Assembly (NCBI GenBank): GCA_965279305.1
Contig: OZ257143.1
Location: 570,001 to 602,000, forward strand
DNA length: 32,000 bases
Reading direction: 5' to 3'
From: Gammaproteobacteria bacterium
GTDB taxonomy: Bacteria; Pseudomonadota; Gammaproteobacteria; JBIOEC01
In this document: piece by piece, positions 10,992 through 22,484 of the stretch
Position numbering within the stretch: position 1 is the first letter of the stretch
Layout of the letters: the number at the start of each line of letters is the position of its first letter
The notes under the pieces: generated by a model
Told to the model about the DNA's origin: nothing
The model's input: the letters and a program-made list of their open reading frames with translations, nothing else
Database searches by the model: none
Made by a program: the position numbers and the translations under genes

Positions 10992-11447
10992 ATGCACTCT
11001 GCTTTAGCCGTTGCCAACCGTATTTTAAAACTGGCTCAAGAAAAAGGAAATCGGCTAACCCCTTTACAGCTAATGAAACTGGTATTTTTATGTCACGCAT
11101 GGATGCTAGGTTTACACAAAAGACACTTAGTAGAAGATCCTGTAGAAGCATGGAAGTATGGCCCCGTCATCAAAAAACTATATGATTCGATTAAAGAATT
11201 TAAAAGTAACCCAGTACCCTATCCTTTAAATGATGTTAATAAAATAGAGTTTGACGCAATAGAAGATAACTTGATCACTCAAGTGTATGATGCCTACGGA
11301 CATTTTACTGGCATCCAGCTTTCAGCACTCACACACGAAAAGGGCAGTCCATGGGATCAAGCATGGACAAAAGGTGGAAACAACCCCACCATATCCAATG
11401 ATGTAATAGAACATTATTATCGCAGTCTTGCAGACAACTCTGTTTAA
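10992..11447 (+). CDS. Panacea-domain (DUF4065, SocA-like) putative antitoxin, PanA copy 1
   Basis: 151 aa. Motifs LTPLQLMKLVFLCHAWMLG, EAWKYGPVIKKLYD and THEKGSPWDQAW match the DUF4065 pattern (LKLQKLLY.A..W....G..LF...FEAW..GPV...Y; H....PW). Confidence 0.75.
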   Translation: MHSALAVANRILKLAQEKGNRLTPLQLMKLVFLCHAWMLGLHKRHLVEDPVEAWKYGPVIKKLYDSIKEFKSNPVPYPLNDVNKIEFDAIEDNLITQVYDAYGHFTGIQLSALTHEKGSPWDQAWTKGGNNPTISNDVIEHYYRSLADNSV

Positions 11448-18747: not shown

Positions 18748-19140
18748 ATGAGATTTTATGCAGTTATCTTGGTTTTAGCGTCATTCTTAACATCCGGCTG
18801 CTCTGTATATATGGCCGCCAAAGGAAACAACGGTACAGACTTAGATGAAATTACAGAGTGCAAAACCAGAGGCTGTTTAATAGCAGCTGGCGCCCAACCC
18901 ATAGGAGCCCAAAAAGACAAAAATGGCGACTACACCTCTGAAACCTTTAGAATCATCAAACCCACCGGATCGGCTGCAAGAGCAGCCATGCATGGCGTAC
19001 TTGATCTCGCCACCTTTGGGATTTGGGAAGTTGCCGGAACACCGATAGAAGGCTATCTAGGAAAAGAAGAATCCATCGCCATCAAAGTAAATTACGAACA
19101 CGATGGCAACACCATTGATTCAATGTCCATCGAACAATAA
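18748..19140 (+). CDS. Lipoprotein of unknown function
   Basis: Signal peptide plus lipobox (MRFYAVILVLASFLTSGC). 130 aa. An 88-bp internal segment is duplicated at 20897-20984. Confidence 0.7.
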   Translation: MRFYAVILVLASFLTSGCSVYMAAKGNNGTDLDEITECKTRGCLIAAGAQPIGAQKDKNGDYTSETFRIIKPTGSAARAAMHGVLDLATFGIWEVAGTPIEGYLGKEESIAIKVNYEHDGNTIDSMSIEQ

Positions 19141-19161: not shown

Positions 19162-19196
19162 ATGTAATTGCGCCACAAGCGGTGTCGCAATTACAT
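19162..19196 (+). other. Long hairpin downstream of the lipoprotein gene
   Basis: 11-bp perfect stem ATGTAATTGCG / CGCAATTACAT enclosing CCACAAGCGGTG. That core is related to the CCACAARCTGTGG hairpins at 20374 and 20838. No T-run follows. The 3' foot coincides with the right end of the segment missing from the duplicate copy. Confidence 0.55.
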
Positions 19197-19270
19197 TAGC
19201 ATTGGCCAAATCGTAATCCATCTCTCACCCCAAAATCATCCAAATGGAACTAGTATTTTATTTCTATTTT
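19197..19270 (+). repeat. Leader repeat copy A (upstream of PanA copy 2)
   Basis: TAGCATTGGCCAAATCGTAATCCATCTCTCACCCCAAAATCATCCAAATGGAACTA... It recurs at 20985-21060 with roughly 85% identity by eye. Confidence 0.8.
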
Positions 19271-19336: not shown

Positions 19337-19795
19337 ATGGCTACGTGTTTTGATGCTGCAAAATATATTCTTGAAGTAAAAAATGAACTGCCTGTCGTTA
19401 AATTGCAAAAATTACTTTATTACGCACAAGCATGGTCTTTAGTTTGGGATGAAGCACCCTTATTTAAAGAAAATATAGAAGCATGGATCAATGGCCCTGT
19501 GATCCCCGTATTGTATGAATTTCACAAAGGTAAATACTCTATACAATCAGCTGATTTACCCGATGCATCTTCAGATAATTTAACAAGCAACCAAAAAGAT
19601 ACGATTAATCAGGTATTAAATTACTACGGAAATAAATCACCACAATGGTTGAGTGATTTAACCCATCTCGAAGATCCCTGGAAAAATGCACGCAAAGGAA
19701 TTCCACCAAACGAAAGAGGTAATAGCTTAATTAGTTTGGCAGATATGAGCGAATACTACTCTTCGCTCCCTCCAGAGGACAATGTAGATGTCTAA
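19337..19795 (+). CDS. Panacea-domain (DUF4065, SocA-like) putative antitoxin, PanA copy 2
   Basis: 152 aa. VKLQKLLYYAQAWSLVWDEAPLFKENIEAWINGPVIPVLYEF and LTHLEDPWKNARKG fit the DUF4065 pattern very well. Confidence 0.82.
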   Translation: MATCFDAAKYILEVKNELPVVKLQKLLYYAQAWSLVWDEAPLFKENIEAWINGPVIPVLYEFHKGKYSIQSADLPDASSDNLTSNQKDTINQVLNYYGNKSPQWLSDLTHLEDPWKNARKGIPPNERGNSLISLADMSEYYSSLPPEDNVDV

Positions 19796-20243
19796 AAATA
19801 AACAAGCAAAAATTTATCGTAAACCATCTATTGAAAACCAAATCAGAACAGCTGGTACAAATCAACATCGCATTACTAACACACTTGATCATCATCCTGT
19901 TTGGCAATTAAAAATTATCGATATGGAACATAAAAACTGGGGATGGAAAAACATACAAGGACAACTTCAAGAAGTTCTCTCAAAACTAAAAGATTATGAA
20001 ACCATGCAATGGAAAGAAATTAAAAGTAACAACGCTCGGGATCACGCAGTAGAAACGGATAAGCTAAACACCGAAGCAAAAAAACGTCTTCAAGAATTAA
20101 AACTTGATGACGTAGGACAGCTATATAGACTTAGACTAAGCGGTACCCAAAGAGTATGGGGTATTTTAGACGGATACATCTTTAAAATTTTATGGTGGGA
20201 TCCTAATCACACCGTATGCCCCTCTGCCAAACGAAACACCTAA
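19788..20243 (+). CDS. Hypothetical 151-aa protein, candidate PanA-neutralised toxin (possible RelE/ParE-like C-terminal sheet)
   Basis: The ATG overlaps the PanA stop by 8 nt (GTAGATGTCTAA). I recognise no family. The C-terminal LYRLRLSGTQRVWGILDGYIFKILWWDPNHTVCP has a strand-turn-strand pattern resembling the last three strands of RelE/ParE-fold toxins (inference). Confidence 0.55.
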   Translation: MSKNKQAKIYRKPSIENQIRTAGTNQHRITNTLDHHPVWQLKIIDMEHKNWGWKNIQGQLQEVLSKLKDYETMQWKEIKSNNARDHAVETDKLNTEAKKRLQELKLDDVGQLYRLRLSGTQRVWGILDGYIFKILWWDPNHTVCPSAKRNT

Positions 20244-20274
20244 TAACTTCATTAATAAACATACGATCAATATT

Positions 20275-20345
20275 TTACGAAACAACCTGTTTCGTAAATA
20301 TCCTATAAATTCCAAAACCAATTTTCGGAACAGGCTGTTCCGAAA
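20275..20345 (+). repeat. Pair of related perfect hairpins (10-bp stem, 3-nt loop)
   Basis: TTACGAAACA-ACC-TGTTTCGTAA (20275-20297) and TTTCGGAACA-GGC-TGTTCCGAAA (20323-20345). The two stem differences are both compensated on the opposite arm. Confidence 0.6.
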
Positions 20346-20373: not shown

Positions 20374-20396
20374 GTCCACAAGCTGTGGACTTTTTT
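20374..20396 (+). terminator. Hairpin + T6 (terminator-like boundary element X)
   Basis: GTCCACA-AGC-TGTGGAC followed by TTTTTT and then CAATGTCA. Confidence 0.55.
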
Positions 20397-20531
20397 CAAT
20401 GTCATATTTCCATCTCCAATAACAACCTCTAAATATCTCTTATCCTCTCTTACATCTATTAAATTGCTTTAATCAAAACCTAGTCTACACTCCAAACACA
20501 GACAATATCGCACAAAAAGGAACTTTGAAAT

Positions 20532-20804
20532 ATGAGATTTATTCTTATACTGCTTCTATCAATATTTACTACAGGAATCGTAACTGCAAATGATATTCAA
20601 AATAACGAATTAAAATCCAGCATAGTTTGCCCAGAAGTTTCAGCTAATGAATCGCAAATAGAAGGTGATAATACAGAACTAGCAAAAAGCGGTTGCTGCT
20701 CTTGGCATGATGGAGTCTGCGGATGTTCTGGCGGAAGAACACAATGCTGTGATGGCACAACAAGCCCTTCCTGTACCTGTTACGGCAATATGCCTGTGGG
20801 ATAA
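20532..20804 (+). CDS. Small secreted cysteine-rich protein
   Basis: Signal peptide MRFILILLLSIFTTGIVTA. The mature C-terminal 35 aa hold 9 Cys (GCCSWHDGVCGCSGGRTQCCDGTTSPSCTC). AAGGA RBS. Followed by a hairpin + T6 terminator. Confidence 0.6.
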   Translation: MRFILILLLSIFTTGIVTANDIQNNELKSSIVCPEVSANESQIEGDNTELAKSGCCSWHDGVCGCSGGRTQCCDGTTSPSCTCYGNMPVG

Positions 20805-20837
20805 CCCTAATTTGTGCTCGCTTCCAAAATATAAAAA

Positions 20838-20860
20838 GCCCACAAACTGTGGGCTTTTTT
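20838..20860 (+). terminator. Rho-independent terminator (boundary element Y hairpin)
   Basis: GCCCACA-AAC-TGTGGGC followed by TTTTTT. Same architecture and flank (TTTTTTCAATGTCA) as 20374-20404. Confidence 0.65.
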
Positions 20861-20888
20861 CAATGTCAAACGTCAAAATTTGACCCCA
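20860..20888 (+). repeat. GTCAA-triplet motif, copy 1
   Basis: TCAATGTCAAACGTCAAAATTTGACCCCAT contains two direct GTCAAA units plus one inverted unit, forming the palindrome GTCAAA-A-TTTGAC (20872-20884). It matches 21949-21977 at 27/30. Confidence 0.7.
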
Positions 20889-20896
20889 TATCATTT

Positions 20897-20984
20897 TCAA
20901 ACCCACCGGATCAGCGGCACGAGCAGCTATGCATGGCGTACTCGATCTCGCCACCTTAGGAATTTGGGAAGTAGCCGGAACACC
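20897..20984 (+). pseudogene. Fragment of a lipoprotein gene paralogous to 18748-19140
   Basis: 88 bp align without gaps to 18956-19043 with 8 mismatches. It encodes ...MHGVLDLATLGIWEVAGTP versus MHGVLDLATFGIWEVAGTP. There is no start or signal peptide. The 3' part is replaced by the leader repeat. Confidence 0.8.
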
Positions 20985-21060
20985 TAGCAATGGCCAAATC
21001 GTAATCCATCTCTCACCCAAAAATCATCCAAACAGAACTACAAATTCCATTCTATTTCTT
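20985..21060 (+). repeat. Leader repeat copy B (upstream of the DUF3800 gene)
   Basis: TAGCAATGGCCAAATCGTAATCCATCTCTCACCCAAAAATCATCCAAACAGAACTA..., homologous to 19197-19270. Confidence 0.8.
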
Positions 21061-21087
21061 GCTCTAATAAACAAGTACTTATATAAT
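21059..21087 (+). promoter_or_regulatory. Candidate sigma70 promoter
   Basis: TTGCTC (21059-21064), 17-nt spacer, TATAAT (21082-21087). Confidence 0.4.
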
Positions 21088-21093
21088 ATTATT

Positions 21094-21180
21094 AGGTGGG
21101 TAAAGCCTGAGTAAACCGCGAAGCTGAAAAGTATCGTAAGCGTTCTTTTAAGAACGTCGGTCTCAGGGTCCACCTTTTTT
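21094..21180 (+). ncRNA. Candidate structured RNA (leader/attenuator of the DUF3800 gene, or a small RNA)
   Basis: Begins where the candidate promoter would initiate. Outer helix AGGTGG (21094-99) / CCACCT (21170-75). Second helix CCTGAG (21106-11) / CTCAGG (21162-67). ACCG/CGGT (21115-18 / 21158-61). Apical hairpin CGTTCT-TTTA-AGAACG (21141-56). Followed immediately by a T-run ending at 21180. Confidence 0.3.
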
Positions 21181-21216
21181 ATTGTCCAAAATTGACTTGC
21201 AACGAAGTTAATAAAA

Positions 21217-21924
21217 ATGAACTCTAAAGTCATTTTTTTGGATGAAAGCGGTGATCTAGGATGGAAATTCGATTCTCCTTACCGGCACGGAGGCTCAAGT
21301 CGTCACCTCACTATTTCTGCTGTTATTCTTCCAGAAAGTAAAAAACACCTGCCAGCACGACTGATAAAAGATTTATATATAAAATCTAAATGGCCAACAA
21401 AGCAGGAAAAGAAATGGGCAAAAATGAGTGCAAAAGAGCGCTATGATTTTGCTTGTTCAGCGAAAAACTTAATAGATTTAAATTTTGATATTGAATACCT
21501 TTCAATTACTGTTTACAAACCTAATGTGCATGATCATATCAAGAAAGATGCTAATAAACTCTATAATTATATGATAGGGTTACTATTACTAGATAAAATG
21601 CAGATTTGTGACGAAGTATTATTTGTGCCAGATAGCAGAGAGCTTAAAGTGGCAGGAGGAAAAAGTTTGCATGATTATTTATTAACCCAGCTTTGGTTTG
21701 ATAGACATACCAAAACTCAAGTAATAAACCAGCCTAGAGATAGCGCTTCAGACAAAGGAGTCCAATTTGCAGATATGCTTTCCGGATTAATTCAACACTA
21801 TTTTGAAGATAAAAAAACAAACTTATTTTCCATGTTGAAAAATCAAATTAGTTTCAAAAAACTATATTTTCCTCAAAAGACTTCCGCTCGCACTATTAGA
21901 AGTGAAAAAGTGATTATTTTATAA
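21217..21924 (+). CDS. DUF3800-family protein
   Basis: 235 aa. The N-terminal VIFLDESGDLG and C-terminal VQFADMLSGLI correspond to the DES and QxxD motifs I remember for DUF3800. No SD is visible upstream of the ATG. Confidence 0.72.
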   Translation: MNSKVIFLDESGDLGWKFDSPYRHGGSSRHLTISAVILPESKKHLPARLIKDLYIKSKWPTKQEKKWAKMSAKERYDFACSAKNLIDLNFDIEYLSITVYKPNVHDHIKKDANKLYNYMIGLLLLDKMQICDEVLFVPDSRELKVAGGKSLHDYLLTQLWFDRHTKTQVINQPRDSASDKGVQFADMLSGLIQHYFEDKKTNLFSMLKNQISFKKLYFPQKTSARTIRSEKVIIL

Positions 21925-21948
21925 TTATCTTTTCAAGATGACATATCG

Positions 21949-21977
21949 TCAATGTCAAATGTCAAGACTTGACCCCA
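21949..21977 (+). repeat. GTCAA-triplet motif, copy 2
   Basis: TCAATGTCAAATGTCAAGACTTGACCCCAT. The palindrome here is GTCAAG-A-CTTGAC (21961-21973), so the A>G change is matched by T>C on the other arm. Confidence 0.7.
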
Positions 21978-21983
21978 TCAGTG

Positions 21984-22484
21984 TTAAGAAAGAATCCATG
22001 TACGCCAGTAGCTCGGTTGTAAAGCCGGCGCTTGAGCAGGACGCGCGAGGGGTGGAGATTGAGCTTCAGGCCAAATGACAGCAGCACTCATTTCTGCTTC
22101 ATTAAAAAATGCATCAGAAAAAACGATTTCTAACTCTCTTAGAGGTGTAGCATGAGTTTCTTTAATAATTTTGCATATTAGCCCAATCAGGGTAATGATA
22201 GTTCCAAGCCCTGCTTGCAGATAAGTAAGAATATTTAAGAATGTCTTAGCAGAGGAATCAGAGGAATTTGAAGTTGATAAAACTACCGTTTGAATAACTG
22301 CTAATGCAGCCACTATAGTAGCTGCGGTATAGCCAGCATACGTTATTGCACTATCACAACGTTTAACGGTAATGCTCCAGGAATGCAGCCTACAATCTAA
22401 ATCACCTTTACTCTCAAACCATTCCTGCAACCATGCTTTTTTTTGAGCTGACGTTCTGTTTGAAAAATCAGGAACGGTTGGCAT
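21984..22484 (-). CDS. Hypothetical membrane protein with a paired-TM hydrophobic hairpin
   Basis: 166 aa. Two hydrophobic helices (YAGYTAATIVAALAVIQTVVL; FLNILTYLQAGLGTIITLIGLICKII) are separated by a Ser-rich loop. Pro/Ala/Gln-rich C-terminus. Confidence 0.5.
   Translation of the reverse strand: MPTVPDFSNRTSAQKKAWLQEWFESKGDLDCRLHSWSITVKRCDSAITYAGYTAATIVAALAVIQTVVLSTSNSSDSSAKTFLNILTYLQAGLGTIITLIGLICKIIKETHATPLRELEIVFSDAFFNEAEMSAAVIWPEAQSPPLARPAQAPALQPSYWRTWILS

Follow-up and report, generated by a model that had tools for sequence, protein, structure and literature searches.

Repeats beside accessory genes of a small gammaproteobacterial genome: probable orphan ends of TIRYT-type elements and a separate set of terminator-type hairpins

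The stretch of DNA considered here, hereafter the window, comprises 32,000 nucleotides (positions 570,001 to 602,000) of contig OZ257143.1, from a gammaproteobacterial genome that consists of one contig of 1.87 Mb with 38.9% G+C. Within it, a Panacea/toxin gene pair, a gene for a small Cys-rich protein and a DUF3800 gene are accompanied by two recurring motifs, a 30-mer with an embedded palindrome and a hairpin followed by six T residues (hairpin+T6), and the question that this locus raises is what these motifs are and whether they have anything to do with the movement of the genes. The original prediction, made from the letters of the window, was that they belong to one repeat family which brackets each cassette and is bound by a protein such as a recombinase, a transposase or a repressor. 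The analysis reported here leads to a different answer: the 30-mer is probably the solitary terminal inverted repeat (TIR) of a non-autonomous, TIRYT-derived element resembling miniature inverted-repeat transposable elements (MITEs) and REPINs, present as an orphan relic, whereas the hairpin+T6 is a separate stem-loop of the terminator type.

Two repeats of different nature

Both recurrences are genuine. A repeat finder recovered the 30-mer at 20860-20889 and 21949-21978 with 27 of 30 positions identical, each copy ending one base later than originally given, and the 29-nt repeat CCACAA[G/A]CTGTGG[A/G]CTTTTTTCAATGTCA at 20376-20404 and 20840-20868 with 27/29 identity, its two stem differences keeping the pairing (T:A to C:G). 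Neither degenerate pattern, 30-nt or 29-nt, was matched in 100 dinucleotide shuffles of the window, even at three mismatches. A genome-wide pattern search, as had been proposed, separated the two: the 30-mer is a multi-copy family, while no copy of the hairpin+T6 unit was found beyond the two in the window. The idea of a single family bracketing every cassette therefore conflated two unrelated families, which abut only at 20860.

A third, degenerate copy of the 30-mer had been placed at 21175-21196, just before the DUF3800 gene. This copy does not stand, as its local score (13-17) is no better than the shuffle mean of 17 and its T-run closes a structured RNA that resembles DUF3800-I. The RNA (21084-21184) matches the full model of RF02969 (DUF3800-I) with 26.2 bits (E=0.026 in a 191-nt search) and RF02962 (DUF3800-III) with 21.1 bits; it has the same stems as these Rfam families and their defining position upstream of a DUF3800 gene, but scores under the gathering threshold (44.2 for DUF3800-I).

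Copies of the 30-mer across the genome

The core of the 30-mer, GTCAAGACTTGACCCC, occurs 27 times in the genome at no more than two mismatches, and a profile search of the genome retrieved 23 confident copies, here called arms, at 18 loci. In its complete form the unit is made of two inverted arms around a centre (GGGGTCAAGTCTTGACATnTGACATTGG, 14-32 nt of centre, then TTAATGTCAAATGTCAAGACTTGACCCC) and is 70-88 nt long. The 18 loci consist of 10 such doublets, two collapsed palindromes (GGGGTCAAGTCTTGACCCC-like) and six solo arms, among which are both window copies. Collapse of an arm pair to a palindrome is expected, because with the palindromic 13-mer the arms repeat each other in direct as well as in inverted orientation. 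As single-stranded DNA, doublets form extended hairpins, of -26 kcal/mol (z -11) and -41 kcal/mol (z -13), whereas a single arm reaches only -2.5 to -3.3 kcal/mol (z -1.0 and -2.6), which is not a significant fold. The window arms are solo, lie in direct orientation 1089 nt apart and have the DUF3800 segment between them; the one at 21949-21978 is identical over 26/26 positions to nine other arms of the same genome.

Almost all arm loci are intergenic: 17 of the 18 lie outside open reading frames (ORFs) of at least 100 aa, though such ORFs cover 92% of the genome, and the remaining one overlaps an implausible antisense ORF. Their distribution is uneven, with 11 of 18 within 52 kb beside ssrA and an integrase gene, where 0.5 would be expected (the loci are partly non-independent, one unit being duplicated), four solo arms in another array of islands, which follows tRNA-Arg(CCT), and one doublet at 937 kb flanked by core-looking genes. 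The possibility that the motif would turn out to be a generic repetitive extragenic palindrome (REP) at random sites is thus borne out in one respect, since this is a REP/MITE-like intergenic family, and contradicted in another, since it is concentrated in accessory islands. About seven arms face gene starts and about eight face gene ends. Right arms are better kept than left arms (6/203 vs 22/196 variant cells, a small and partly non-independent sample), and the complementary strand of each arm holds two perfect TTGACA hexamers.

A possible arm-bounded unit of 1069 nt at 1295227-1296295 was rejected, its left arm (19/24) being at the 95th percentile of background and its 284-aa ORF having no Pfam match; its right arm is perfect and it is as long as a TIRYT element, yet the ORF does not encode a transposase.

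The parent element in other genomes

The TIRYT (TIR-associated tyrosine transposase) or TIRtron class, known from surveys of genomes, was named by Di Nocera, De Gregorio & Rocco in 2013, with GGGGWSAS as end motif; its TIR repeats form moderately abundant families of singles, dimers and clusters, and repeats and TIRYT genes do not always co-occur (PMC3733652). TIRYT-type proteins constitute subclass 2.1 of TnpA-Y1, with a Bac_DnaA_C/helix-turn-helix (HTH) tail, and the ends are unlike DnaA boxes (Quentin et al. 2018, 10.1101/279083). The end of the window arm (...TTGACCCC) corresponds on the complementary strand to GGGGTCAA, which agrees with GGGGWSAS at 7/8 positions and has A at the last S. 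Among 56 elements of ~0.9-1.4 kb delimited here in genomes and metagenomes, all inverted ends start GGGGTC (mostly GGGGTCAGGTC or GGGGTCAAGTC), and 26 elements start GGGGTCAA; for TIRYT-type elements the start can be written GGGGTCA[AG]G. A subterminal TTGAC lies 13-30 nt inside the end in 43% of the 56, compared with ~1.5% by chance, and the 'GTCAA units' of the original prediction are this TTGAC on the other strand. TIRYT-type proteins reportedly correspond to RAYT group 1 of Bertels et al. 2017.

One autonomous element, L148, comes from a metagenome. It spans 1181 nt (526-1706) and holds a 333-aa ORF, with its stop codon within the right end, that matches Y1_Tnp with 50 bits and Bac_DnaA_C with 25 bits, the latter under its cut-off. 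Its ends are GGGGTCAAGTCTGGACATTTGACATTAG and CCAATGTCTAATGTCCAGACTTGACCCC; the window arm at 21950-21976 is identical to each of them at 25/27 positions and the arm at 20861-20887 is identical to them at 22/27. Given the 25/27 identity, an autonomous parent type for the window motif exists. The prediction of a protein-recognised site is in this way partly supported, namely for an HUH/RAYT-type transposase, one of the candidates that it had named, which fits the 30-mer by its terminal GGGGTCAAG, its subterminal TTGAC and its match to the L148 ends, and not for a recombinase cassette system.

Near-identical arms are also found in G001, the only other genome of the order (same genus, 66% complete, rpoD DNA 70-74% identical), and in G029, G041 and G048, all three from a single family of another order; they were not found in ~75 other class-level genomes or in the viral contigs searched. 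In G029, all 27 arms are identical and form 89-nt doublets over five contigs, which reads as the signature of recent spread. This genome has one intact gene of 325 aa with Y1_Tnp and Bac_DnaA_C domains, whose best NCBIfam match is the REP-associated tyrosine transposase (68 bits, cut-off 80) and whose homologues occur in 165 of 399 sampled gammaproteobacterial genomes. The gene is flanked by inverted arms GGGGTCAAGTATTCACATGACACTTAC, which have the terminal ACTTGACCCC in common with the window arm and are alike at 19/25 positions; the same flanking arms make ~11 identical doublets in G029, and there are more in G048 and G041. One such arm pair of G048 still encloses the last 39 codons of the transposase gene and represents a deletion intermediate between a gene-bearing element and a doublet. 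A second Y1 gene of G029 was set aside as a truncated pseudogene without ends.

Around 20 doublets of G029 there are no consistent flanking direct repeats beyond a conserved AT, and the absence of target duplication fits a parent of the HUH type rather than the DDE type. A Tn3-type reading, suggested by the GGGG ends and a TAAG at about position 38, was rejected because there are no 5-bp duplications and Y1 genes lie between such ends. Two further observations concern the surroundings of these copies: the outermost 5 nt of G029 doublets (L081, L087, L094, L223-L230) that are otherwise identical vary symmetrically, e.g. GTAAT...ATTAC, GCGAT...ATCGC and GTGAT...ATCAC, and several of the doublets lie within or beside another repeat, CTGTCATCC... 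A tandem duplication of the element end together with 6-10 nt of its flank is seen in the genome of the window, in G001 and in G029, where it also occurs beside the transposase gene.

The search for a cognate enzyme in the genome of the window was another step that had been proposed. There are only three tyrosine recombinases, at 174, 1311 and 1586 kb, all remote from the window and two of them adjoining ssrA or tRNA-type att sites. No Y1 transposase is present: a search with Y1_Tnp (PF01797) had no match, six control genomes being positive, and protein and tblastn searches for a remnant with two TIRYT proteins matched only dnaA. With 18 loci and no transposase gene, the copies are orphans.

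The palindrome and its changes

The original prediction took the change between the two window arms as compensatory, preserving a dyad. The change from GTCAAG-A-CTTGAC to GTCAAA-A-TTTGAC is truly two-sided; the dyad, however, is not conserved across the family. Among the 23 arms, about seven have one-sided changes in the 13-mer and one has a two-sided change, and imperfect dyads are found both in G029 (GCCAAGACTTGAC, identical in all copies, the most recently active-looking) and in the autonomous L148 (GTCCAGACTTGAC). From these imperfect dyads and one-sided changes it follows that the dyad is lineage-specific and not a requirement of the family. The GTCAAAATTTGAC variant seen at 20860 is also present on both arms of a G041 doublet, and an intermediate, GTCAAGATTTGAC, occurs in G041 and in this genome; the 20860 copy probably descends from a sub-lineage like that of G041, rather than from compensation in place. 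The argument that a one-nucleotide spacer precludes a hairpin fails, as a stem of 5 bp closing a loop of 3 nt is open to the 13-mer. The changed positions fall in that loop, and the fold is weak (-2.5 kcal/mol, z -1.0), no better than those of shuffles.

The hairpin family

The hairpin+T6 is a terminator-type stem-loop of a local set of four, H1 to H4 (Table 1), one member of which happens to abut a solo arm. H1, H2 and H3 follow the toxin gene at a spacing of 48 nt; they were considered as a tandem array, but Tandem Repeats Finder found none. H4, located after the gene for the Cys-rich protein, is joined directly to the solo arm at 20860. The general form, N4-ACA-N3-TGT-N4', occurs only eight times in the genome, not far from the 2-6 times of shuffled genomes, and four of the eight are at this locus. 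When H1-H4 are compared with two hairpins of G041, all 8/8 stem pairs are always paired, five vary on both sides and the ACA/TGT apex is invariant, the hairpins having been found by complementarity.

Near-identical hairpins exist in three genomes of other families. H3 is identical at 31/32 positions, flanks included, to a hairpin of G045 (C1:1437692); in G041 (C29:3499-3578) an H3-like hairpin has an H1-like hairpin 61 nt away; and in G284 (C1:609457-609554) an H4-like hairpin stands in tandem with one of the lipoprotein type. The G041 and G045 copies lie beside P4-like integrase genes, on the 3' side of int, which is not the usual place of attL. The same stem recurs, with the look of a plain terminator, in two unrelated phage contigs, and the resemblance may be partly convergent. 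The related core CCACAAGCGGTG reported at 19173-19184 was indeed found, in the hairpin apex after the lipoprotein gene, and its link to the hairpin family is probably real, since in G284 a hairpin nearly the same as that of the lipoprotein gene precedes the H4-like one by 45 nt.

The hairpin+T6+CAATGTCA unit occurs twice in the genome, both times in the window, and the 29-nt repeat is read as a duplicated hairpin module or junction. CAATGTCA follows a hairpin only in this genome; its CAA also follows the G045 hairpin, and TGTCA is specific to the window copies. The reading of 20397-20404 as a truncated arm accordingly depends on 5 nt.

Gene content of the locus

The coordinates of the features are collected in Table 1. 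After the DUF3800 gene follow a Cass2/GyrI-like gene, tRNA-Met and rpoD. The second copy of the lipoprotein gene begins 7 nt past the first 30-mer and has lost 153 nt internally, comprising the gene end and the hairpin. Homologues of the Cys-rich gene elsewhere carry neither hairpin nor arm. Another Panacea-domain homologue in the window, at 10992-11447 (+), is 32% identical to the one in the table.

Table 1. Features of the locus, in coordinates of the window.
Feature	Position	Strand	Remarks
Lipoprotein-gene hairpin	19162-19196	+	Apex CCACAAGCGGTG at 19173-19184; -18.6 kcal/mol, z -3.9
SocA/Panacea-domain antitoxin gene	19337-19795	+	
MAG6450-family gene	19788-20243	+	Overlaps the Panacea antitoxin gene; called the "toxin" half of the Panacea/toxin pair
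Hairpin H1	20274-20298	+	N4-ACA-N3-TGT-N4' type
Hairpin H2	20323-20345	+	N4-ACA-N3-TGT-N4' type
Hairpin H3 (GTCCACA-AGC-TGTGGAC) + T6	20374-20396	+	Terminator-like, -10.5 kcal/mol; downstream of the Panacea/toxin pair
CAATGTCA	20397-20404	+	8 nt in common with 20861-20868; inner edge of a truncated arm, or tail of a hairpin module
Small secreted Cys-rich protein gene	20532-20804	+	29-nt direct repeat on either side
Hairpin H4 (AAAAGCCCACA-AAC-TGTGGGCTTTT...)	20834-20859	+	-20.1 kcal/mol, z -6.5; terminator-like on both strands
Solo arm, variant GTCAAAATTTGAC	20860-20889	+	nhmmer E=1e-6; terminus ...TTGACCCC(AT) rightward
Second lipoprotein-gene copy (3' part and downstream), internally deleted	20897-21057	+	Equals 18956-19043 + 19197-19269 (91% and 86% identity)
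DUF3800-I-like structured RNA with terminator (T6)	21084-21184	+	-32.5 kcal/mol, z -4.15; directly upstream of the DUF3800 gene
DUF3800 gene	21217-21924	+	Between the two solo arms
Solo arm, canonical sequence	21949-21978	+	Profile search E=2e-9; fills the 59-nt gap between the DUF3800 gene and 21984-22484
ORF convergent with the DUF3800 gene	21984-22484	-	59-nt gap after the DUF3800 stop (21924)

A synteny search around rpoD matched only distant genomes, at no more than 64% identity. G001 was rejected as a locus comparison, because of its divergence and fragmentation: the contig with rpoD breaks off within that gene, and the tRNA match adjoins tig, which lies elsewhere here. The tRNA-Met as an island att site was likewise rejected, as there is no tRNA 3' fragment to its left and a 30-nt similarity (D3) covers only 7 tRNA bases.

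Islands and rearrangements

The island after ssrA (tmRNA) spans 173073-226000 of the genome, with an integrase gene at 174.3 kb and many eukaryote-like genes. Between its arm loci are found genes of the ankyrin/F-box, leucine-rich repeat (LRR), Sel1, RNase III-ankyrin, AAA and RhuM types. Modules at 84-87% identity are common to this island and that at 1311-1320 kb, and the arms may have been imported recently with the islands. The ssrA island also contains paralogous gene pairs in inverted and in direct orientation.

As for tRNA-Arg(CCT), encoded at 1344861-1344934, its 3' half has three direct copies downstream of it, at 1297151, 1298832 and ~1310250; one copy stands beside an integrase gene (1310412-1311770), and the whole looks like a tandem array of integrated islands.

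Proposed origin of the arms

The parent would be a TIRYT element of about 1 kb, with a single gene for an HUH/Y1 transposase carrying a DnaA-C-like HTH tail, between inverted ends GGGGTCA[AG]G. In genomes that have the enzyme, the transposase would presumably bind and cut the ends and the doublets, and these would be copied to new intergenic sites without target duplication. The orphan copies of this genome would either have come with horizontally acquired islands or owe their spread to an enzyme that was later lost. Both copies in the window could then be half-elements left at rearrangement junctions of the accessory region beside tRNA-Met, and the 29-nt repeat a duplication of the hairpin-arm junction or of the hairpin module. 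Most likely, the arms here have no dedicated function beyond passive effects, e.g. as short homology for rearrangements.

Several points weigh against the arms being TIRYT-derived relics. The cognate transposase is absent here, and mobilisation in this lineage is a deduction; for that matter, TIRYT transposition has been demonstrated for no member, neither PMC3733652 nor 10.1101/279083 containing biochemical evidence. L148, the autonomous element whose ends match, was found on a metagenome contig unrelated to this genome, and the GGGGWSAS motif has A here as its final base. Over 26 nt, nine arms show no difference though the only congener differs by 26-30% in rpoD DNA, and such identity, together with the better-kept right arms, could point to constraint rather than decay. 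Furthermore, the arms are at least involved in rearrangements. At two of the tRNA-Arg(CCT) 3'-half copies a solo arm stands 11 nt further on, and a 1.2-kb unit, made of a 337-aa effector-like gene and its flanking repeats, is duplicated with boundaries at arms, one of which has collapsed to the minimal palindrome.

Alternative explanations

One alternative is that the host has recruited the arms as regulatory or RNA-processing elements, for example as -35-like TTGACA boxes directed outward or inward, as terminators or to stabilise mRNA, and that selection keeps them despite the loss of the transposase. REPs and MITEs are known in such roles (PMC3733652), each arm offers two perfect TTGACA hexamers, a promoter-like site at 21952-21924 (-) overlaps the window arm, and right arms are conserved where centres and left arms vary. 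Co-option is nonetheless unlikely, considering that the orientation of the arms to neighbouring genes is mixed, that solo arms have no significant fold, that termination at 20838-20859 is accounted for by a separate GC-rich hairpin, and that transcription from the promoter predicted at 21952 would run into the DUF3800 gene in antisense.

Another possibility is that the arms or the hairpin+T6 are the sites at which a tyrosine or serine recombinase of this genome inserts, excises or shuffles accessory cassettes, in the manner of integron attC or pdif sites, as first proposed. The motifs do lie at gene boundaries; the Cys-rich gene stands between 29-nt direct repeats and the DUF3800 segment between arms that lie in direct orientation at a distance of 1089 nt; the breakpoint of a duplication adjoins one of the window arms; and elsewhere the duplicated 1.2-kb unit, the arms 11 nt from two tRNA-Arg att copies and the H3-like hairpins near P4-like integrase genes in G041 and G045 point the same way. 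Against this, neither the window nor its surroundings contain a recombinase, the only three of the genome, all tyrosine recombinases, lying at 174, 1311 and 1586 kb, and no integron core sites were recognised by eye (no scan was made). Arm orientation is mixed, with ~7 facing starts and ~8 facing ends, and in other genomes the same ends flank Y1 transposase genes. As to the hairpin, the unit with CAATGTCA occurs only twice in the genome, the G041/G045 copies are on the 3' side of int, unlike the position of attL, and homologues of the Cys-rich gene carry neither motif. Such a system is therefore improbable, and the notion that the Panacea/toxin pair, the Cys-rich gene and the DUF3800 gene move as cassettes is not supported.

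A broader variant is that the retained right arms and the conserved-apex hairpins mark module boundaries in integrase-linked islands, as recombination or regulatory sites through which intracellular bacteria of different orders would exchange effector, toxin-antitoxin and DUF3800 modules, one possible route being a TIRYT enzyme acting in trans from a co-resident bacterium; this must be regarded as a long shot. Finally, that both motifs are mere debris of local duplication is hardly credible, for although the hairpin+T6+CAATGTCA unit is limited to the locus and a duplicated lipoprotein-gene fragment lies in the same 2 kb, the idea is refuted for the 30-mer, which has 23 arms across the genome and further copies in four others, and weakened for the hairpin by its near-identical counterparts in G041, G045 and G284.

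Comparison with known systems

The arms resemble the TIRYT/TIRtron class in several respects: the ends start GGGGTCAA, matching ends in L148 and a sister arm in G029 flank a RAYT-like Y1 transposase with a Bac_DnaA_C-like tail, gene-less singles, dimers and clusters occupy intergenic DNA, and there is no target duplication. What sets this genome apart is the lack of a TIRYT gene, the concentration of copies in integrase-linked, effector-rich islands, and A rather than S at motif position 8.

With the REPIN-RAYT system (Bertels & Rainey 2011, PMC3116915; Nunvar et al. 2010) the family has in common an inverted pair that forms a long hairpin doublet, intergenic dispersal and one Y1/HUH transposase gene with the same repeats on its two sides. 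Unlike REPs, the arm has no 5' GTAG/GTGG foot and forms no stable hairpin alone; the enzyme is of the TIR-associated branch with an HTH tail, and the arms are common to two orders, whereas REPINs are mostly vertical. Resemblance to MITEs such as Correia/NEMIS, ERIC and RUP lies in the size (70-90 nt), the absence of genes, inverted ends of 26-28 nt, positions near genes and robust hairpins. Classical MITEs derive from DDE insertion sequences and have target duplications; the arm family has none, which fits its HUH-type parent. Like integron attC and pdif (Xer) sites, the arm units combine imperfect inverted repeats with a centre that varies, and border small accessory genes. Unlike them, they have no integron integrase beside the arrays, show no R''/R' (RYYYAAC...GTTRRRY) cores or dif-like 11-6-11 arrangement to the eye (no scan was made), are of mixed orientation, and flank large genes with their own signals.

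Significance

A false lead is removed, in that the locus gives no support to a new cassette-recombination system, and the 30-mer family is a new orphan member of a known, little-studied class. It adds a case to a barely studied kind of mobile DNA, namely an orphan family of TIRYT ends in the effector-rich islands of a small genome, with the same family present nearly base for base in bacteria of another order that still have the enzyme, and with the G048 intermediate and L148 besides. These sequences, along with G029 and its two families of identical doublets and one intact gene, would be well suited as substrates for a first biochemical study of a TIRYT. For annotation, the arms serve as markers of horizontally acquired DNA in this lineage.

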